A DNA stretch of 64,000 bases. Source: Lytechinus pictus (Eukaryota). Every line of letters starts with the position of its first letter. Positions within the stretch are counted from its first letter, which is position 1. This document shows, in pieces, positions 24,529-62,749 of this stretch. The notes beneath the pieces are model-generated. The model was not told the DNA's origin. It saw only the letters and a list, made by a program, of their open reading frames with translations, and searched no databases. The translations under genes were made by a program, and so were the position numbers. The stretch is from contig NC_087245.1 of the NCBI RefSeq assembly GCF_037042905.1, forward strand, positions 32,490,001 to 32,554,000. Direction: 5' to 3'.

Positions 24529-27500
24529 TTAGGGCTTTGGTGTGTTTAACCCGATTTCAGGCGTGCCTAGGAAATAATATTTCCAGTCTTGTGACCCATT
24601 CTTCAAGCCATAATACCCAATAGCCAGTGTTAGGAGGGTATTGAAATTGCCCGCGCCCCCGCTGTAGTCCCCAAAGCACTTTAAGTCTTCCAAATGACGT
24701 ATCATGCCATCTATGCATAAATCATATTCTGACTGGCGCAGCGACGACAAGGCGCGTCGAAAATGACGCCAAAGATGAGCGAGGTTAATGCCACGAAGCG
24801 CCAGCAGAGGAAGGATTAAAACCATGATCTTCTCCGAAAATATGATTGCATTCATCACATTGATGGTGATGTATTCTTGTGTTGTTTTGGCGTTGTGCAA
24901 GGCTTGGTAATTCCAGCTTAGGTGTACAGCGAGCCCGAGAGTTGCGAGGTTGACCGTGAACAACATCCAGTAATGAATTACGTAGTTGAAGATTTGGAAG
25001 TCACGATAGGTTTCGGATAGACGCCCTCGGCAAAAATCCAACCTACAGTAATGAAAATAACAAAAAATGCACAAGTGATAGATCGGGTCTCGCAAGTACA
25101 CCGGTGTTTGTTTCGCGATTACAATCCTACACACCTAGGTCTACGACAAAATGAAAAAAATAATTACAAAAATGATTCTTACCTTTTCTTATGTTTGACG
25201 ATAAAAGCGAGGTCGACCTCCATCTCGTTTTCAAACGATTTCCTCATGAGGAACAGAAAGGCACAGAAAGCGACGAAAACGAGGAATAAGAAAGACTCGA
25301 GCGTCGATTGGAATTCCCAAGGACCATGACTGTGTTCGACGAGGGAACCGAATGCGATCTTGATGGCGGCATCGATCATAATCCATACACAGCCAGCAAC
25401 AATGAACCAGGTGCCGTCTGGTGATCGACCACGACTTCGTGTGGATGCATTGGACAGATACTGGAGTCTGCGCATGACGTAGTCCTGATGGAGGATCGTT
25501 GGCCAACTCCGTAGTTGGGGCTTGATCTCGTTGCTTGATTGGGAAGGACTCCGATTACCTTTCATGTCAAGAGCAAAATCCAACGCTTAAATTATTAAAG
25601 TATCATAATTTTAATTATTATTGTTTGTATTCTCTTCCCTCTATGGAGATCTTCAGAGTCATATATACCTCTTGAACTCTTAAATGGAAATGATAGACGT
25701 ATTGTAGTTATAATTTGAATTATTGTGAATTCCCTTTTTATCTATGTCGGGGTTTAGTTTTTTGCAACGGCTGATCAGCAGTCTTCCATGATGATGATGA
25801 TTGATGATGATAATGATGATGATTATGATGATGATGATTTGGATTATGATGTTGATAATGATGATTATGATGACTACGACGACGGCAATGATGATGATAA
25901 ATTCTAACATCATCAGCAAATTATCTAATCATCCATTAAGAAAAAACAAAGTCTACATTGGCAAACTGGAGATCGAGGGGGAATGGAGGGGGAGGGGTAA
26001 TATAGGGCCCACTTGAAGTCCTATCGTAATTACAATATTTCTGGTCAACATACACAATCATGTATGTGTTATTGAAAAAAAAAAGCGGAATATTAAGACT
26101 TACCATTGAAGAGATGTACAAGGTGAGAATAGAAGCAAATGAGGGGAACAGATCCTATAATACCAAGGAATGAGAAATACGACGTTAGGTGCATGATCTG
26201 GTCTTTCTTGCCGAAATACTTCGTAATATAGATCGCAACAAGATATAAGGTGGCCGCCGTTAGGATTGTCATGGTAACAAAAGAGACGAGACTTCCAATG
26301 TAACGGTGCCTAGGACCATGGCCTGAAAGTGTAAGAAGAGATTTGACGGGTCACAAAGTCATTTTATTTGTTCATTTATTGGTAAAAAAAAAGGATGAGC
26401 AACAGTAGAGACTGAATTGGTCAATTTACATAAGCTGTTCCGGGAAGAATTAAATGTGTATAATGTCCTTGCAAAAAATTATAATAAACTATGTGTAGCG
26501 AAAAGGATGTAAGGAATAAATAATGCTTATAGCCATGAATATAGCCATAATATGTCTGTAAAGCGCTTAGAGACGTCGTTCCGATGTATTAAGCGCTATA
26601 TAAAAGCGGATTATTATTATTATTATTATGAACTGAAGGGAGGGGTACGTGCCGTTTAGAAATTGTCCAAACAGTCATTTTGTGAAACAATTTTGCAGAA
26701 ACATCCATGAAAACTGTGCAAGAGATCGTTATATTTGCAATCGGATAAAATGACCTCGATGGCATTATTATGTTCTTGTGGGTTTATCTCTTCTTGCCTT
26801 CCAGAATGGATCACCGAAAGATGCTACTATTACAGTTAAAATAATATATCATAATATCTTATCCACACCTAAATAATGACATCCAGATGGGGGCGCGCTT
26901 AGGGGACAATACCCGCAAAAATTTTCCCAAGGAAAAGAAAAGAAGATGGAAAAAGAAAGAATAAGAAAAGGTAGTAAGATCAATTATTTTTGTATGATGT
27001 CCAAATTTTTCACAAAATTAGATTTTCATTAAAAAAAAACACCATATGAGATCATGAAATGTTTTTCGCTTATCACGCCACTGAGCTGAGAATTAATTGA
27101 TTGATGCAATATTGCCTTCTATTGTGAGGATAGGATTTTTTTTCTTTGGAGACGTGTGGGCATGCATTGAAAGAATTAAATGATCATGTAAACGGATAGT
27201 AAATAATGAAAACGATTTCATTGTATCATTATATGACCACTACGAGCGTTTACTCAAAGCTTGCGTGATGGGGACAATGTTCAGATTGTAAAAATGACGA
27301 TGACAGTCATGGCAGTGATGGTGAAGGTTATGGCGAGGCCAAGGGCGGAAATCTCTCCCCAAAGGTAAGGGGGGGGGGACAAGGGGCTGGAAAATTTGAT
27401 AAGCAAAAAAAAAAAAGAGGTTATCACCCCAAAAAGTAAGGTCATCTCGTCCAAAATACATGTCTTATTTCGATTTTGAATAATGTATATCCTTCCATCA

Positions 27501-28505
27501 TAAAAAAACAAAATTAGTAGGGGGGACATTTGATATTGTGTCCCCCCTACTATTTTGGGTAGGGGGACGCGTCCCCCTTGTCCCCCCTGGGATATCCGCC
27601 CATGGGCGAGACTGAAAATACGATGATAGTGGTTGTGGTGCTAGGATAGTGACGATGTCGTTGGCTGCCATAATTCTGAATATTTGTGTTGATGGTGGGG
27701 ACGATGGCAAAATAAGGAAAAAAATCAACATGATAATGATTTAACTTATAATGTTTTGGGAGAAGGCTATGAGGATCCATTAATATAATGCTGGTGGGAT
27801 GGGGGCCGGGTGTCCAGATACTTTAAAATTTTGAAAAATCTTTTTTTTTTGCTTTGGATTGCACAAAAAATATAAATTCAATAGGCATAGATCGAGATGT
27901 AATTTATTTCAGTTCTGTTCTTTATAATATTGCCTAAGGCATTGCACTAAAAATTGATGAAACTTTGCTTGTTAACATTTTCAAATGGTCGTTTTAAAAT
28001 CGATTGTCCGGACACACAACAATATTGGGTATACCCCCACACCACGGCATGCACGCTTACCTGTTTCACTTGTCGGAAGAGGCCTAGCATCGCCGTCCCA
28101 AGCCATACTCTTACAAACTTCACATTCCACAGAACGTGATGATCGTTGCGCGCTGCCTCCGATTTCTTGGCCATTGGTACACTGAGAGTGAGAACTCGCT
28201 CGATCTCGACCGCGACCACGGACTCGAGTAGGCAAAGGCGAGCCGTTGCAACCACGGATTTCAAAAGGTGAGACAAAATCTTTGTCGAAAACGTTGGGTA
28301 CTCTACCGTCATCGTGCGAATCCCTGCTAGCGTCGTCGTCATCGTAATCGTCTACCCCACCTCCTCGACCTTCCCACATCACGCATTGGTCGCATTTCGT
28401 CTTGATTGTGATAGGGCGGGGGTAAAAGATACCCAACAACTGGAGGCTGGTCTCGATCAAACGTGTCCATTTCGTTATTGCACTCATGTTATTTGTTCGC
28501 GACAT
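24529..28505 (-). CDS. Uncharacterised multi-pass membrane protein, 517 aa, gustatory receptor-like (GRL)/7TMIC-like layout; complement(join(24529..25042,25183..25558,26104..26322,28061..28505))
   Basis: Four exons join in frame (1554 nt, phases 1,1,2) with GTAAGC/GTAAGT/GTAAGA donors and AG acceptors; an in-frame TAG lies just upstream of the ATG at 28505. About 7 hydrophobic segments plus an N-terminal 'SLQLLGIFYP' helix. The gene model is well supported; the family assignment is inference. Confidence 0.85.
25788..25900. repeat. Degenerate (GAT)n trinucleotide microsatellite in intron 2 of the minus-strand membrane-protein gene
   Basis: ATGATGATG... run with TAA/TTA/ACG interruptions. Confidence 0.85.
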
Positions 28506-29944: not shown

Positions 29945-31400
29945 CTTCGCCGGTTGAAAATAATCAGCAGTGCGCTGCCTGCATATAACTGGCGCCAATC
30001 AAGAATAATCAGCGCCACCTAAATCTAAATCGGCGCCGGACAAGAATTTTTTTATTTTATTATTTATTTATTTATTCATATTTCACCAGGGTAGCTCATT
30101 CAACAAAAGTTGATCTTCCATGAGGCCCTGGATAACAAACAATACAATTATATACAATTAAAAACAATCAATGGTGATAATACATATACAATCATCAGTC
30201 CATATGCTATTGTTAAAATACAGACGTATAAAGTGATAACAGTATTATATAAAGTAATATATCAAAAAAGAGATGATAGTTTATAGCATCAGTCCTGAAA
30301 GGGGAATGGTATTGCATCCCAGTTGATCAGCCTAGGCAAGATTGAGGAAATGTCTTTGAACAGAGAGTTTGAAATTATTGAGGGTTTTAACATTTTTAAC
30401 ACTTTGTGGGAGACTATTCCATAGAACGCAGCCATCATAATATAAAGCAGTTGTATAATAATCAGTACGGCATTTACCTATAACTATATCATGATGAGCA
30501 CTTTGTCGAGTATTTACATTATGAACTTTAGAAATTTCTTTAAAAACATTTTTAAAACAATCTGCTGATAAGTCATGAAGACATTTATAAATAAATATAC
30601 ACCTGAAGTATTCTACTCTTTTCTTAAAAGGCATCCATCTTAAACGAGTAAACATTTCATTAGAGGGGGTGTATATATTACAGTTTAAAATAAGTCTTGC
30701 TGCCCTCTTTTGCAATTTAGTCAACTTATCACTTTGACCTAAATATCTATTCCCCCAAATTTCACAAGAGTAATCCATTTGTGTTTGAATGAGGCATACA
30801 TATAATAATTTCATTGAAGCTTCACCAACATATGGTTTGACTCTTCTGAGCATGGCAAGTCCTGCAAATACTTTTCTACATACATAGTCAACATGATTGC
30901 ACCATAACAAATTATCATCAATAATAACACCAAGAATAATCAGCGCCATCTGGTTATAGATCGGCGCCGGTAAAGAAAAATCAGCGCTGCCTGAGTCTTA
31001 ACCGGCGCCGATCAAGAATAATCAGCTCCACCTAAATCTAAATCGGCGCCGGACAAGAATAATCAGCACCACCTGGTTAAAAAAATCGGCGCCAGTCAAG
31101 AATAATCGGCGCCTCCTGGTTCTAAATCGGCGCCAGTCGATTATGAATTGCCGCTGCCTGAATCTTACGTGACGTCGGTAAAAATAATCAGCACTACTTG
31201 TTCTAAATCGGCGCCGGTCAAGACAAATCGGCGCTGCTTTTGTCTTAACCGGCGCCACCTAAATTTGAATCGGCGCCGGTCAAGAATAATCGGCGTCCCC
31301 GGGTTCCAATAAATAGGCGCCGGTAGAATAATGAAGAAGGGCCTATTGCCAACCAAATCTAGATCGGCGCCGGTCAAGAATGATCAGCGGCACCTGGTTA
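29945..31400. repeat. ~42-bp GC-rich tandem repeat (consensus about AATCGGCGCCGGTCAAGAATAATCAGCGCCACCTGGTTCTA), interrupted by a LINE fragment
   Basis: Degenerate units at 29945-30047 and 30931-31400, most with a GGCGCC core. Confidence 0.8.
30048..30930 (-). mobile_element. 5'-truncated LINE (L2/CR1-group) ORF2 C-terminus plus 3' UTR
   Basis: ORF 30332..30949: LGVIIDDNLLW..HVDYV...DYSCEIWG...LQKRAARLI...LWNSLP; (AAAT)n/poly-A tail at about 30048-30076. Confidence 0.9.
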
Positions 31401-35722: not shown

Positions 35723-36567
35723 TTGATGTTGGGCATAAAGTATAGAAGACTTATTTGCCCCTCTGCATCTTCTTAGAACTTGTCCTCAGTTATAAACGTA
35801 ACAATTTCACATGCATGTGTGGGTTTGGACGATTTGTGAAAATTCTGTGTCTGGGTCGAAGCGATTATACTTGGTTTTCCAGGCCTTCTCTAGATTTGAT
35901 TTGAATGAATTTATACTGCTACTGTTTACGACCTCAGAAGGTAGGTCATTCCATAGGTTGATTACCTGTGCGAGAAATCCCTTTGCCTGAGTGTTGAATG
36001 AGCTCTTAGCTTGATTATTTTTCTAGAATGTCCTCTTGTCCGAGGTTGAGTGTCAAGTTTGAAGAAATTTGTACAGTCTAAATCATCTATGCCCTGAATA
36101 ATCTTAAACGTTTGGATCATATCCGCTCTATTTCTCCTATAGGATAACGTTGGTAGATTTAGTTTCTTCAGTCGTTCCATGTAGCTCAAGTTCTTCAGAT
36201 GTGGAATTAGCTTGGTTGCTCTACGTTGGATTTTTTCCAGTTTTATGATGTCTTTCTTGAGATAGGGGTGCCATACACTACTGCAGTATTCTAAAGATGG
36301 TCGTATGATTGACTTGTAAAGTTGAACCAGACCTCTTTCATCCAAATTTGAGAAGGTTCTCTTGATAAGTCCTAAGAGGCGGTTTGCTTTGGCACAAGCT
36401 TTGATCACATGTTTAGAAAATTGCAAATTGTTATCAAAGGTTACTCCCAGGTCATTTTCCTCTGTCACTTTTGGAATTTCAGAAGTGTCATCTGGTACTA
36501 GTAGGTAGCTCATACCTGGATTTTTTCTTCCAATAGACATTACTTTGCATTTCTTCTTGTTGAAAGT
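35691..36567 (-). mobile_element. 5'-truncated CR1-group LINE with poly-A tail
   Basis: ORF 35962..36540: KCKVM...ENDLGV.FD..L.F..H...LYKSIIRPSLEY...WHP...LEKIQRRATK...TRGH; T-run at 35691-35719 is the poly-A tail on the minus strand. Confidence 0.9.
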
Positions 36568-37122
36568 TACTTCCGCCCGAGCAAATCACCCGTCGACTTT
36601 CGCCGGGGAAGAGATGTCAGTGCGAAAGGGTACATTTTTTTCTTTGCCGGGGAAGTGAGGAATGCGTGCTGGAGAAGTTTGCCGGAGAAAAATGAAGAGG
36701 CCAGTTTGAAAGGGGTATAAGTAAACTGCATGTAACCACGCTTCGTTCAGGGTAGATATAGAAGTTTAGATTATCCATGAGTAGGTTGCTTGATGTCAAT
36801 GTTGGACTAAGATGTTTGTCGCCTGTCACGTCACGCTGCACCTCTGAATTTTTGCGAACAAGAAAAATGCAAGGTGCATGTGTGCGTCATCACAGAATAT
36901 CACTGGGAAACTTGGCTGTTAATTTTTGTTGGTCTGAACATGATTAACATCCCCAACTGACTCGCCAATAGCCTGCAAAGTATCATTGAAAATTTTAAGA
37001 GAATTTTATAGAAATATATATTTTTTTAAATCTATTTATCCATAGATCGTGAGTGGCATCAAGATCCAGAAAGTTTGAAGTTGATGGAGAAATCAGCCTT
37101 TTTAAAACAAGGATAATGCATC

Positions 37123-52745: not shown

Positions 52746-55700
52746 ATGGCATCTTCAGATGAGAAAAGTTTGGACCCATGGCGATACGTCATAATTGTTT
52801 CCAAGTTCATGGTTTATTTTCTGCATATTGGACTAGTCAAATCTCTGTCTGTACTCATTCCCTATCTCGTCATCCAACTGGACGTGGACACCGCAACGGT
52901 TGGCGTCCTTGTTACCATGGAAATCGGAATATATTTTATGGCTTGTAAGTATTTCCCTGCGTTCATGAATTTGTTTTTATGTTTAAAGGTAGTTAGGTAT
53001 ATTGCATGATTCAAAATCACTGCTACACCTTTTCTGTTTACCATTGGGAGAGCAAATGAATTCATTAATTTTGCTGATCAAATGTATCCGCGAAATACAC
53101 GATTAGCTAATATTATTTAAACTTATAACTTTAAGAATTATTTTCCCTCTCTCCTTTTAATCATACCAGAAGTGCTTAGCTAAAGGTTGAAATATATATA
53201 TACAGCTGTGCATTATCTTTGTTTATTGGTCTTCGCATCTTCATGCTCATGAAATACTAGGATTAATAATCAGGCTAAAATACTCTTTAAAGAATCGGTA
53301 TTTAACAACATGCATTCCCATTTCTTTGCCAAATGGGGTCAATCAGGAAAAATCTACTCTACTCATGTTTTTCATCAAATTTGGATCTCAAATTCTGGGT
53401 TTCGCTAAGAGTCTGCGAAAACTAAAAAAACACCAACAACAATAAGGGCCACTCAATTGCGATAAAGCTCGGAGAGAACCCTAGGTGACTTGGGGCACTT
53501 GCCCCCGTCCCCAAAAAATATAGAGAGAAAAGTCCACGTCTAACAAAAAAAAAACGATTAAGGGTAAACAGCAGAACAGGGAATGGAAAATGGTTAATGT
53601 GATGTTATTTTCGGAGGCTCGCTCGCCACTTTTTCAAGGGAATTTTAAACCCATACATATCCCATGTTCTGCCCTATCATTTTTTTTCTGGCAACTGCAA
53701 AGGTCATATGCCTATCTTCATATTGAAAAAAATCCAGATTACCAATTAATTTTAGCATGTTTAGAAAGACCAGTAGCATTACAAAATAGATCTATATACA
53801 CAGCTTTCTAATTTTTAGAAATAAAGTATTAGTATCATTGATTAAATGTTTATCGAAAAGTAATTAGTTCGCACTAACAGGCGCATCTACTACTTCTAAA
53901 CATATGCTAAAGAGAGGCATGACGCATGACCTCTCGAAATGTTGAGGTCGTGATATTTTCACTATTGTTTTCTCTAGCCGGCTGGCTCTTCCGGTCTGTT
54001 AACCATTTTCAACAATTGTTTTTGTATATAGGTCCACTTGGTCATTTTCTGAACCATAAGTTTGGCTCTCGTCAGGTGACAACAATAGGAGGCATCTTAG
54101 CTGCAATTTCGTTCATGGCAGGAACATTCTGCAAGACAGCGCCCTCTCTTGGGTGCCTTTTATTTTTCACAGGTGATTATACATCGTTTGCTAAAAAAAA
54201 AAGAGATACACATTTAGACTTGCAACTTAAACATATTTTGTTTTATATGTTTTTATTATAAGTTTTCTTTAAATTAGTTTTTAATATAAGTTTTATTTTA
54301 CATGGAACCACCACGTAGAACATTAGAAGGGCGCACTAGTGTTAATTTTCACCAGAGCTGCCAGAACGTAGGGGGTGGGGATTCAATCTGACAATAAACT
54401 GGTCTTCATTAAAGCAGAAAGAGAAGAAAAAATATTAGTGAAGATGTGACGACAATTCGTCAAAGAACAAGGATGTTATTTTTTCTTCAGTTTTTTATAT
54501 TGTGACGTCACAGATAAGCAGCTCCTCCATATGTCGGATGATAGATTCCACAAGATCCATTTTCTGAAAATATGAAATGAGTTTATTAGTGAGGTGGATA
54601 AATCATCACACACATCATAATTGCACACCGCCTTCTACATGTTCTACATGACAAATATTATATTTATCATGTTTATTTAAACAAAATGAATTTATGGGAT
54701 TGATATTACATGATATATAGGGAACTGCTCGCATGTTATGACGGCAAAAATTGGAGAAAACAAAATTAATGACTTTTATTTTTAGATGGATTTTCAATAA
54801 ACCTTCGTCAATATGTTTGTTAATCATTTGTTAATGATTCTATTCCATCCAACACTTTGTCAGGGTGCACTTTTCCTTTAAACTGCATCTTAAAGGGGCT
54901 TAAAAAATTTTTTTTTCAATTTGTTTCCCCTCCACAGGGATTTTATTATTATTCAAAAACATAACAAGATATCTTTTCAATGACAAATCAAATTAATAAC
55001 AACGAAATACAATACAACAGTAATTGTAACAAATATATAAATTGAACTGTCAGGTTTACATAATAGTAAACAATTTAAGGAACAATGGCGAAAATGGCGA
55101 AAATGGCGAAAATATTCTTGCTGCTGAATGCAAGTCAGAATATGAAATTAACAAGGACAACGCTTAAAACATAACTTTATACAACAGTACTCATGCAGAA
55201 CCTCTTCATGTAATTTGAGGAACATTTGAAAGTTCCCAATATGTGTAAAGGAAACTTTGAATTGTTTAATTTCAAAGCTCTATTGATTTTTTAAAGCTCT
55301 ATCCTTTCCATTTTTAAATCTTTATCCATTCAGTTCTTTAAAGCTCTGTCCATTTCATTCTTCGAATAGTAGAGAGGACAAGCCGAACAATCATAATAAG
55401 AGACAGTTTGTCTTCCTGTCACTGATACATATTTTCTGGCCATTTCAGTCAGTAGTACACTCTGATTAAGGTTTGGTCAAAATAACCAATGCGTTGGTGA
55501 CCGAAACAAAAGTGGTCAAATTTACCAATTTATTTGTTGGATTCTACCAATAGAAAGGTTGAAATCGAACATTTTATAATCGGAAAACATACATTACCCA
55601 ACAGATTGATTAAATTTGACCAATCCTCTTTAAGAGTGTCCGTTTAGAATGATAAGCACTATAAAACTGTGAGCAAGCATTTTTTTTTTTAGTGAAAGAT

Positions 55701-58410
55701 ATCCTGTGATTTTTCAGTTCAATTTTCTCTGGACATCGTTGATAGAGTCAAAGCTACAGCAACACGTGAATGTTATGTTTATCTTCTTTTCCATAATATT
55801 CAACCATAGGTCTCCTTGTTTATCATCTTTTCCATAACTGATATCTTCAACCATATAGGTCTCTTCGTTTATCTTCTTTTCCATAACTGATATTTTCAAC
55901 CATAGGTCTCTTCGTTTATCTTTTTTTCCATAACTGATATCTTCCACCATATATAGGTCTCTTCATTTATCTTCTTTTCCATAACTGATATCTTCCACCA
56001 TAGGTCTCTTCGTTTAACTTCTTTTCCATAACTGATATCTTCAACCATATATAGGTCTCTTCGTTTATCTTCTTTTACATAACTGATATCTTCAACCACA
56101 GGTCTCTTCGCTTCCCCGTTGAATCAAGGATCGAGTGAAGTGCTTCACCAACATTACAGAGACAATTTCGGATTAGCTTCGGCAATCACGATGATGGGTA
56201 GTCAAATCGGGAGTTTCGTAATGCCCTACCTGACCTTGATAAGTATGGATGCCTATGGGCCAAGAGGGAGCTTCTTGATCCTTAGCGCCATGATGTTTCA
56301 TTGGGTACCAATAGGAGCCACGCTGCGTTCATATCCGAAAGGCCAATCTGAAAGTGGAACATCCTTGTCTAAACTGTCTACAGGGAACGATAGTGATGAC
56401 GCTGGGTGTGAACGTGAGCCACTTCGAACTAGAAACGATGATCAGGTCTGTCAGCTTCAGAGCAAAGAAATAACAGCCACAGCGAGTAGCCCCCGCGATT
56501 TACAGTCTGATCCAAACACTGGACAGATGGAGAAAAGCCAAAATCTTCGAGAAGGAATGTTCAGCATGATCCGAAACACCATGCTTGATGCCGTAGATTT
56601 TGTTAAAAAGGAACGCGTTTTTGCATGCCTTCTGCTTCCCAGCCAGGTCTTTTTCGACATGTCTTACATCGGTTGGTCAGTGTTTTTGTTCTCCTACGGA
56701 ATAGCCGAAGGATTACGTAAAGACACAGCCGTGTTCTTAGTCATGATCGCTTCCGTTGGCGGCATCGTCGGAAGACTCTTCCTCGTAGTATTCCTGTATA
56801 AGTACCCATTGTTAACGATACCATTGCTGCCAACAAGCCTCTTGATATCATCCATATCGCTCCTGGCGTACCCTATTAATTCCTCTCCGACCTATCTATG
56901 CATCTGCTCTTTTGTCGCCGGGATTGGTTTCTACAATACGTATTCAACATTCGACGGAGTTATTTCTTTGAAGGTCCGGAAAAATAATTTCCCAAAGGCC
57001 ATTGCTTGCTCCCTGATGGTATCCGGGGCCTCTTTTCTTGCTTCTGGAGTACTAACAGGTAAATATATACACACTTAATATTGAGGGAAAAAGCTGAGAT
57101 AGAAATAACCTTTTCAAAATTGAAGAGGATTTCCCATCATTGAGAGCCCTGTGTAAGATGGGTAACTCTGGCTTTTTTTTTCATATCTAACTCTATCTAT
57201 TTCATGGATTTATTTTCTTCAAGTAAACAGATTCAGCAAATATATTGGCTCAGTGTGTGTGTAGGGGGGGGGAGGGTGGGAGGTGCTGTGGCCAAGACGC
57301 CTGACTGCACATGGAAGGTCCGGGGTTCGTTCCCCGGCCGCGGCACCTTTGCCCGTGAGCAATGCATTTTTTTTTTATGTTCTTTTATCCTGCATTCAAA
57401 TAAATGGAAATGCTATACGCATAATTGGTATTACTAGGTGTGCACTTGTTTAAAGAAAAAAGAAAGGAGGTGTAGGGTGTGTTGGATGGGTATGAATATT
57501 TGTGGGGGCACGGGTCCAGAGATGTTAATGTATCATTACGTAGTCATGGTAGTGACACAACTCAGTGGTCTGATTATATGGAAACACCTATAGTATAGTA
57601 TTTATTTTCCGTTTAAAAAAAGCAAAACGAATGGATAGCCCATATTCAGTTTAGTCGACATGACAATACTGTTCTTCCATGGGGTCCATATACAATAAAA
57701 AGTAAACAAATATGAAAGAAGAATAACATAAACGTTAATCAAACAAAATAATAAAAGTGGTAAAATGTATCATGTTACTAACAGGAAAAGATAATAAAAT
57801 TCAATAGTTTGGCAAGAGTTTACACGAAATATTTCATAAAATGAATGAATTGAATGAATTAGACCACCATGATAACTCTTACAAAATCAATCACGCTTAG
57901 ATTAATTCTGTAAGTCCTGAAATATTGTAACAGCAGTGGTTTTCGACCAATTTCTAAATTGATCATGCAGAAACACGCACATTAGACATGTTCCATACTT
58001 TATGATATTTTTATTCCTGAGAACAAAAAAGGGTAATATAAAAAAAACGAATAAAATGAATGTTACATAATTATTTTACATACATTCTTTTACATATTTT
58101 TTTTCTTCAAAACGTACAATTTAGCATATTTTATGACTGAAAGAGCATGCATATACACCCCTTCATTTCTCATGGAATTTTCACATGGTCTGGAGTCGGT
58201 TGCCCGGCGTTACTTTACCACGCTCGTGGTAATAATTATTTTCCTCTCTTCTTTTCTTTTTATTTTCCACCAGGTTTCCTTCATGATTTGCTTGGTTCAT
58301 ACAGGGCAGTCTTCCGTATACTGGGGTGCCTCGTTGGGATCATCGGTGTAACAATTACGATTCATATCTGCGTGGAGGCGAGGATAAAACGGACGAACAG
58401 GGGCCTATAA
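52746..58410 (+). CDS. MFS transporter, SLC16/monocarboxylate transporter-like, 477 aa; join(52746..52944,54032..54172,56102..57058,58274..58410)
   Basis: In-frame splice (1434 nt, three phase-1 introns). About 12 hydrophobic segments with a long hydrophilic central loop; motifs 'KFGSRQVTTIGG', 'YGPRGSFLILSA', 'GGIVGRL' and 'GFLHDLLGSYRAVF' are typical of SLC16-like MFS proteins. Orthology cannot be assigned by eye. Confidence 0.9.
55777..56110 (+). repeat. Minisatellite, 7 copies of 47-51 bp, overlapping the exon-3 splice acceptor of the SLC16-like gene
   Basis: Unit GTTTATCTTCTTTTCCATAACTGATATCTTCAACCA(TA)nG|GTCTCTTC; AG dinucleotides start at 55808, 55857, 55904, 55955, 56002, 56053 and 56100. 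Confidence 0.9.
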
Positions 58411-61546: not shown

Positions 61547-62749
61547 TTAATCATAGCATTGACACCGAGAGAATTAAAAATATGAAATAAATCCATTTAA
61601 TATGAACAATACTCAGCAAAATAATTTTCTCAATGACATTGTTGTATATGATGACTTTCAGTGCATATCTCAAGGTGAAAGTAATTATATTTTTCCAGAA
61701 GAATTTCATGAAAGATTTACTAATTACAAGGATTATTTTTCAATGATTCATTTAAATATGAGAAGTTTATGTAGAAATTTTGATAACTTTCAGATCTTTT
61801 TGTCATCTTTAAGGTATAATTTTGATATCATCGGTGTGACGGAAACATGGTTTACTCCCAAAACTCATCACAGTATGTATGATGTAAACAATTATTCTTT
61901 AGCTCAAATTTCAAGACAGGAACGAAATGGTGGAGGTGTTGCTATTTATATAAACAATTGTATTGATTATGTGATTCGAAATTACTTATCTTTATGCTTA
62001 CTGATGATATTGAAGTACTTTTTATAGAACTCAAAGGATCCCTTACAAACTCTGTAATAGGTTGTGTGTATAGACCCCCTAATACCAATTTATCATCCTT
62101 TAATGACAAACTTAATTTATGTTTAGAATCATTGGGTAAGGAAAAGAAAAACATTTATATGATGGGTGATTATAATGTTGACTTATTACCATAAACACTC
62201 CAAAACAAATGATTTTTTAGAAACAATGTTCTCTCATAACTTGTTTCCTGTCATAAGTAAACATACACGAGTTACATCAAGTTCGTGTACACTTATTGAT
62301 AATATTTTTATTAATACTTTTCATGAAAATGTTGAAACTGGTTTGCTATACACAGATATTTCTGATCATTTTCCTATATATTGTCTAATTAATGTAAAAA
62401 ATAAAAGTAAATTTCTGGTTTTTATACCTGTTAGTAGGGTAGATGTGTGATACAATTTATGTTTTTGGTTTTAAAGTATAGATGAAAAGTAAAATTTGAC
62501 AGTTCTGATCAATGTTGCATGGATCTACTAAAACTGTGTCTTTTTTCTAATTTACAAATAGTTCAGTTTCAGTTTAGAAGCTGGAGTTTATTTTTTGTTG
62601 ACAGATAAAAAAAAATTAAAAAGAGAATGATTAAACAAATTATGAAGAAAATTGAAATCCGACATATATGAACAGGCATTGCTTGCAGTGACCAGAATAT
62701 TGCTTGCAGTGACCAGAATATAAATCAATAAAACTGCATGGCTGCATGA

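Follow-up and report, generated by a model that had tools for sequence, protein, structure and literature searches.

A candidate ambulacrarian lineage of seven-transmembrane ion channels with a putative split zinc site, represented by LOC129265903 of Lytechinus pictus

A 64,000-nucleotide stretch of the Lytechinus pictus genome (assembly GCF_037042905.1, contig NC_087245.1, forward-strand positions 32,490,001 to 32,554,000; hereafter the window, whose own coordinates are used below) carries on its minus strand a four-exon gene, LOC129265903, whose RefSeq entry is named "uncharacterized". Taken as a whole, the reading that we favor, and consider fairly probable, is that the encoded protein is a Class-A-like member of the seven-transmembrane ion channel (7TMIC) superfamily, from a distinct lineage, expanded in both echinoderms and hemichordates, that exists beside their canonical gustatory receptor-like proteins (Grls), and that it carries a zinc clamp and probably acts as a chemosensory receptor-channel.

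LOC129265903 is a real, intact gene. Its exons (28505-28061, 26322-26104, 25558-25183, and 25042-24529, all on the minus strand) are bounded by GT donors and AG acceptors, the introns between them are of phase 1, 1, and 2, and the joined 1554 nt encode 517 aa followed by a single terminal stop, as had been claimed for this locus in the original prediction. G+C content is 0.43–0.51 in the exons versus 0.33–0.37 in the introns. Exon 1 (aa 1–148) encodes a helix preceding the first transmembrane segment (TM0, where TM denotes transmembrane), two CxxC motifs, and an acidic loop, and is followed by a phase-1 intron directly ahead of TM1. Exon 2 encodes TM1 (~26314-26216) and TM2 (~26206-26108), exon 3 encodes intracellular loop 1 (IL1, with a conserved W and R-L-Q-x-L), TM3, and a long TM4 (with conserved F-x-Y...R-x-S-F), and exon 4, intron-free inside, encodes TM5, TM6, cytoplasmic helices (the anchor region and TM7a), TM7b, and the stop codon. 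Every hydrophobic segment quoted in the original prediction is present in the translation; six of the seven claimed are recovered by Kyte-Doolittle analysis (window 19, threshold 1.0), while the seventh, TM7b, is short and below threshold, yet forms a helix in the structure model described below.

Searches with exon 4 returned two L. pictus models, 99% and 98% identical, and the L. variegatus orthologue LOC121406504 (P0003), which is 92% identical and likewise "uncharacterized"; 468 of 509 aligned residues are identical between the window protein and P0003. The RefSeq L. pictus model P0001 (99% identical over exon 4) uses a different exon-3 acceptor and a later Met start, which leaves out TM0 as well as the first of the cysteine pairs. 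We did not adopt its shorter N-terminus or extended exon 3, as P0003, which uses the same junctions as the original prediction, and transcript contigs from run X1 both favor the latter. We also discarded a competing 134-aa reading frame that overlaps exon 1, as it needs a phase-0 intron, whereas exon 2 requires phase 1. Near position ~24570, the window has one codon fewer, in frame, than P0002 and P0003, reflecting a polymorphism or an assembly difference.

Logan contigs from X1 (a run whose RNA type was guessed by software) cover all four exons. Intron 1 is absent from them (joint 26321/28060, reading CT..AC on the plus strand), as is intron 3 (adjacent pieces within one contig), whereas removal of intron 2 is only implied, the pieces stopping at exon edges. 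Among the differences listed (40 of 137 rows), 26 are coding; 13 of the 14 amino-acid changes within these are those of P0003, so the contigs represent the orthologue's transcript rather than the L. pictus genome, and 12 of the 26 are synonymous, compared with a fraction of 0.265 expected without selection. Deep both-strand coverage originating elsewhere in the genome marks repeats in intron 1 (26.4-26.7 kb and 27.3-27.65 kb) and intron 2 (25785-25900), and a GAT microsatellite also lies inside intron 2.

Judging from a structure model of P0003, the window protein almost certainly adopts a 7TMIC fold, under the membership criteria of Himmel, Moi and Benton 2023 (10.1101/2023.08.30.555482). Compared with odorant and gustatory receptor (Or/Gr) chains, the model has seven TM helices with Or-like packing. 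TM0 is a helix at residues 2–18, within an aligned range of 1–489, and bears a conserved motif; TM4, TM5, and TM6 span 43, 50, and 29+13 residues as long anchor-forming helices; and a split TM7 comprises helices 443–458 and 468–486, with the alignment reaching the last part of the Or chains and the TM7a label inferred. The links between TM1-2, TM3-4, and TM5-6 are 3–6 aa, while those between TM2-3 and TM6-7b are 48 and 46 aa, that is, short extracellular and long intracellular, and superposition predicts an N-in/C-out orientation. In the window protein, the predicted re-entrant TM0 helix occupies aa 8–25 (28431..28484) and ends in L-x-x-L-G, within a family consensus of W-P...L..LG that is in register with the TM0 of canonical Grls. 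TM7b, the predicted pore helix, lies with its conserved Gln at 24589..24657 and follows the family pattern T..[FL]S.[IL]G.[YF].[GA]L....Q in place of TYhhhhhQF. The model thus supports a gustatory-receptor-like ion channel architecture as originally proposed, including the N-terminal 'l..lG' helix, the long cytoplasmic helical extensions, and the short split TM7.

Word-indexed homolog searches gave only three Lytechinus proteins, and HMMER was needed to recover the family: phmmer over 1.84 billion representatives returned 84 proteins at E<=0.001. Thirty of these were looked up, of which 19 are from echinoderms (Lytechinus, Diadema, Amphiura, Asterias, Acanthaster, Patiria, Apostichopus, Holothuria, and Anneissia, representing all five classes), four from the hemichordate Ptychodera flava, and seven unnamed. 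No named non-ambulacrarian is among the 30, and the family is likely restricted to Ambulacraria, based on the taxonomy of 30 of 84 members. The L. pictus genome holds at least seven family loci, with three queries giving the same seven (two on C1, one on C2, three on C10, and one on C12), and the phase-1 intron just ahead of TM1 is common to the three loci inspected, namely the window gene and two paralogues. A quick tree without an outgroup, built from 62 of 82 rows after dropping rows of <330 aa, shows several deep clades mixing echinoderm classes, with local expansions in sea cucumbers and Ptychodera. Unnamed members form two long-branched clades in this tree (P0071 with P0074, and P0077 with P0081 and P0082) and could widen the family's range. 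P0060 (722 aa) apparently has two N-terminal halves in tandem and is probably a fused model of neighboring paralogues.

Pfam matched nothing meaningful in the exons or full proteins, and none of the 82 aligned members matched 7tm_7, Trehalose_recp, DUF267, DUF3537, PHTF, or G protein-coupled receptor (GPCR) families at E<=0.05. A PDB sequence search with the family profile gave only designed helical proteins and one fusion construct (E>=0.036), and rows from an ESM Atlas structure search with low-confidence models were uninformative. The branch is probably uncatalogued. No description of it was found in the searchable literature and supplements (including PMC7746228, PMC5850775, PMC11526382, and PMC6267866), and the supplements of the 2023 preprint might hold members detected by PSI-BLAST. 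In the searchable supplements of Benton and Himmel 2023 (PMC9998090), five family identifiers are absent from the file with the GrlHz set and three from another, and none of at least eight Lytechinus entries is the orthologue or an identified family member. The available text of Himmel, Moi and Benton 2023 states that animals were not formally screened, and that preliminary screens gave no obvious new animal-specific 7TMICs (10.1101/2023.08.30.555482). The echinoderm receptor survey PMC6267866, in the portion available, treats GPCRs and ionotropic receptors; its 'GRL101' was considered as a relative and set aside as an unrelated GPCR.

Whether the family is a lineage of its own or a rapidly evolving branch that arose inside the canonical animal Grls and lost the TM7 motif and 3' introns was weighed against the canonical Grls of the same genome. 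There, the 7tm_7 profile found two loci, one of which found 11 (L021-L031), and canonical locus L008 passes the 7tm_7 cut-off; neither the seven family loci nor the 11 canonical loci find the other set. The family hidden Markov model scores all 11 canonical frames, which end after TM6, below zero bits. A weak but in-register hhalign match over TM0-TM2 (probability 52%, E 1.4e-4, 88 columns) points to a Class-A relationship and would also suit a nested variant Grl, as would the automatic UniRef name 'Gustatory receptor' of one family member, A0A2G8K354, and the description of the TM7 motif as 'diagnostic, but not definitive' in the accessible text of PMC7746228. Nonetheless, hhalign gave no TM4-TM6 signal against the canonical frames, which lack the TM7 exons, and single-sequence comparisons reached probabilities of only 3% and 0.2%. 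The motif as defined in that text of PMC7746228, (T/S)Yhhhhh(Q/K/E)(F/L/M), is found in none of the 74 members that extend over this segment, even with Y or F allowed, so the absence of the TYxxxxxQF signature noted in the original prediction extends to the family; instead, TM7b has a Gln eight residues past the aromatic in 61 of 72 members and [YF]x[GAS]x(3-7)Q in 55 of 74. Intron patterns also differ. All 11 canonical loci carry a candidate phase-0 GT donor immediately past TM6, recognized by pattern in 10 and by visual inspection in L025, whereas no family locus (0/7) has a post-TM6 intron: in all seven, no intron interrupts the stretch between the TM5 end and the stop codon. In two family paralogues an intron falls where TM5 ends, of phase 0 in one and of phase 1 in the other. 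By motif and introns, as read from the sequence, the window protein is outside the canonical Grl family. Members in both echinoderms and a hemichordate imply a lineage at least as old as Ambulacraria, which counts against nesting. We therefore regard a nested origin as rather unlikely and a lineage separate from canonical Grls as very probable. Eight of the canonical loci (L021-L023 and L025-L029) lie within ~100 kb (C5:7.89-7.99 Mb), with L024 at C3:4.70 Mb and L030 and L031 on C8, the latter pair near-identical in appearance.

A split CxxC pair around an acidic loop between TM0 and TM1 is a new feature of the family, with the pattern R-x-C-x-x-C, acidic loop, C-x-x-C...W. In the window protein, the putative Zn ligands are C38-x-x-C41 (28383..28394; Cys in 36/37 and 30/33 aligned rows) and C128-x-x-C131 (28113..28124; Cys in 34/44 and 44/45 rows), the second pair being followed by a conserved Trp and a short hairpin. 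Between them lies an acidic, variable loop, predicted to be disordered (aa 42–127, 28125..28382; P0003 residues 54–114 have predicted local distance difference test scores, pLDDT, <50), and among members with both motifs this loop is 18–282 aa long and 11–35% D/E. Of the 37 members with alignment over TM0 (a count that leaves out 45 shorter rows), 27 have both CxxC/CxxH halves, seven neither, and three only one, and this co-retention suggests a cytoplasmic zinc site, CxxC elsewhere in family proteins occurring only 0.066 times per 100 aa. On the cytoplasmic side, two CxxC motifs in which Cys and His can replace each other are a sign of a tetrahedral Zn site, and CxxH replaces the first-half CxxC in four members of the Ptychodera-containing clade. 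We consequently view the pair as a likely, though putative, cytoplasmic Zn site. The cysteines could instead be palmitoylation or disulfide sites, or have arisen by chance, as they are near the membrane and absent in about a fifth of members, and the N-terminal piece (exon 1) folded alone gives only pLDDT 58 and a predicted TM-score of 0.27, too poor for a structure search. This is improbable given the strict CxxC spacing, the joint retention or loss of halves, the His substitutions, the predicted cytoplasmic (reducing) location, and the confidence of both halves in the full P0003 model (pLDDT 84–94, and 94 over 121–130), in contrast to the intervening loop. A redox role has reportedly been proposed for an N-terminal cysteine of nematode LITE-1. 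The terms 'zinc' and 'cysteine' are absent from the main text of a 2025 structural review of Grs (PMC12635824).

By analogy with Gr/Or structures, as presented in the available text of PMC12635824, four subunits would assemble via a cytoplasmic anchor formed by the TM4-6 extensions and TM7a, TM7b would line a central cation pore, and the gate would open upon binding, among TM1-TM6, of a small molecule that is either water-borne or endogenous. Judging from sequence, the two CxxC/CxxH halves would jointly hold a single Zn2+ at the cytoplasmic face and so pin TM0 to the start of TM1, looping out the disordered acidic segment; this clamp may tune gating or trafficking. The role would most likely be that of a ligand-gated receptor-channel of a sparse cell type, probably chemosensory. 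Ligand-gated channel function, predicted by analogy, is likely, while for a role in external chemosensation we put the chances at slightly below even. More speculatively, the family may be a second, uncatalogued Or/Gr-type receptor-channel repertoire of ambulacrarians predating the echinoderm-hemichordate split, most members of which carry a Zn clamp coupling gating to Zn2+ or redox, with the acidic loop as a regulatory handle. If true, the 7TMIC would be fitted with an accessory module for sensing metal and would serve as an ionotropic chemoreceptor in deuterostomes. Chemical sensing in sea urchins, sea stars, and acorn worms is poorly known, and a Pfam-invisible lineage over two deuterostome phyla, with ~7 genes on top of the 11 canonical Grl loci identified in L. 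pictus, provides candidates for testing in a genetically tractable urchin. The TM0-TM1 motif further offers a handle on TM0, whose function is called poorly understood in the accessible text of the 2023 preprint (10.1101/2023.08.30.555482).

Several results weigh against the receptor-channel interpretation. The structure model is that of P0003 rather than the window protein; against solved Or/Gr chains it shows 7–13% identity and a root mean square deviation of 4-5 A, its Foldseek search gave no match at E<=0.001, and the ESM Atlas's own low-confidence model had no 7TMIC structural match. A homotetramer prediction for four copies of P0003 residues 256–495 scored 0.00, with the alignment unused and the fold uncertain, and counts neither for nor against. 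The protein lacks the Gln/Phe gate motif of Grs and may therefore be gated differently, and the co-occurrence of cysteine halves (Fisher p 2.6e-5) is overstated because most double losses are in one clade, making the counts phylogenetically non-independent. In addition, three raw RNA-seq runs of unstated tissue, X6-X8, each sampled to about 25%, had zero depth on all four exons, and the available text of PMC9998090 and PMC7746228 places GrlHz, PHTF, and Grls of cnidarians or urchins in developmental or non-sensory contexts. This last point bears on a further alternative, a 7TMIC with a non-sensory role in development, gametes, immunity, or internal metabolite sensing. In its favor are a modest copy number of seven loci, several deep clades across echinoderm classes, the early developmental expression of S. 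purpuratus Grls cited by Benton et al. 2020 (PMC7746228, text in part), and the broad expression of GrlHz described in the accessible text of PMC9998090. However, lineage-specific duplications in sea cucumbers and Ptychodera, with ~20-30% identity between paralogues, are typical of a receptor repertoire, and zero exon reads in three bulk runs of unstated tissue fit sparse expression. A non-sensory role is accordingly plausible, though on balance doubtful. Far less credible is the reading that the locus encodes a GPCR or some other, unrelated kind of 7TM protein, or that the gene is spurious or dead: the same lack of reads and of any convincing Pfam family match could be cited for it, but it is largely refuted already by the transcript contigs and the structural alignment to Or/Gr chains, and neither a GPCR 7TM fold nor a GPCR family profile was found.

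Elsewhere in the window, exons of a Major Facilitator Superfamily transporter occupy 53923-57078 on the plus strand (MFS_1 E 3.9e-17 for 56086-57078). Fragments at 30332-30997 (minus), 35962-36585 (minus), and 61578-62027 (plus) resemble proteins of long interspersed nuclear element (LINE) retrotransposons, and the last of these gave the sole match among the three, a weak one to Exo_endo_phos below cut-off. Beyond the window, the best viral fold matches were uncharacterized giant-virus proteins of 420–450 aa in BFVD, namely A0A1V0SCD1 (Catovirus), A0A3G4ZRZ0 (Edafosvirus), and A0A4D5XEV6 (Mimivirus LCMiAC02), with probabilities of 0.95-0.99, E 0.006-0.17, and a TM-score of only ~0.3. Another close feature neighbor (0.94) is an ESM Atlas cluster in which 77% of the 53 members are viral. 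These giant-virus proteins may be viral 7TMICs; the word 'virus' is absent from the searchable text of the 2023 7TMIC preprint (10.1101/2023.08.30.555482), and no paper on viral 7TMICs surfaced in the literature search.

Compared with insect Or/Gr channels (MhOR5 7LIC/7LID, Orco 6C70, DmGr43a, and BmGr9), the family is only 7–13% identical and lacks TYhhhhhQF, and is distinguished by its split CxxC pair and acidic loop between TM0 and TM1 and by a conserved P-x-x-A-x-G-G break after TM6. With canonical echinoderm Grls (L. variegatus LOC121411727 and LOC121415159 in Benton and Himmel 2023; L021-L031 here) it shares the TM0 L..LG motif. GrlHz, DUF3537, and PHTF are, like the family, 7TMIC lineages without a clear TM7 motif. 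Among these, DUF3537 (PF12056) has clusters among the ESM feature neighbors (0.93), yet matches 0 of 82 members by Pfam; PHTF and Class-B proteins have a very long IL1, whereas that of the family is ~48 aa, with no PHTF Pfam match in 82; and GrlHz spans Holozoa, whereas the family has no named non-ambulacrarian among 30. The fly-specific Grls (among others Grl36a and Grl62a-c) are likewise described, in the available text of PMC9998090, as lineage-restricted 7TMICs visible by structure alone. However, those are confined to flies, while the family of LOC129265903 spans two deuterostome phyla and adds a putative metal-site motif.
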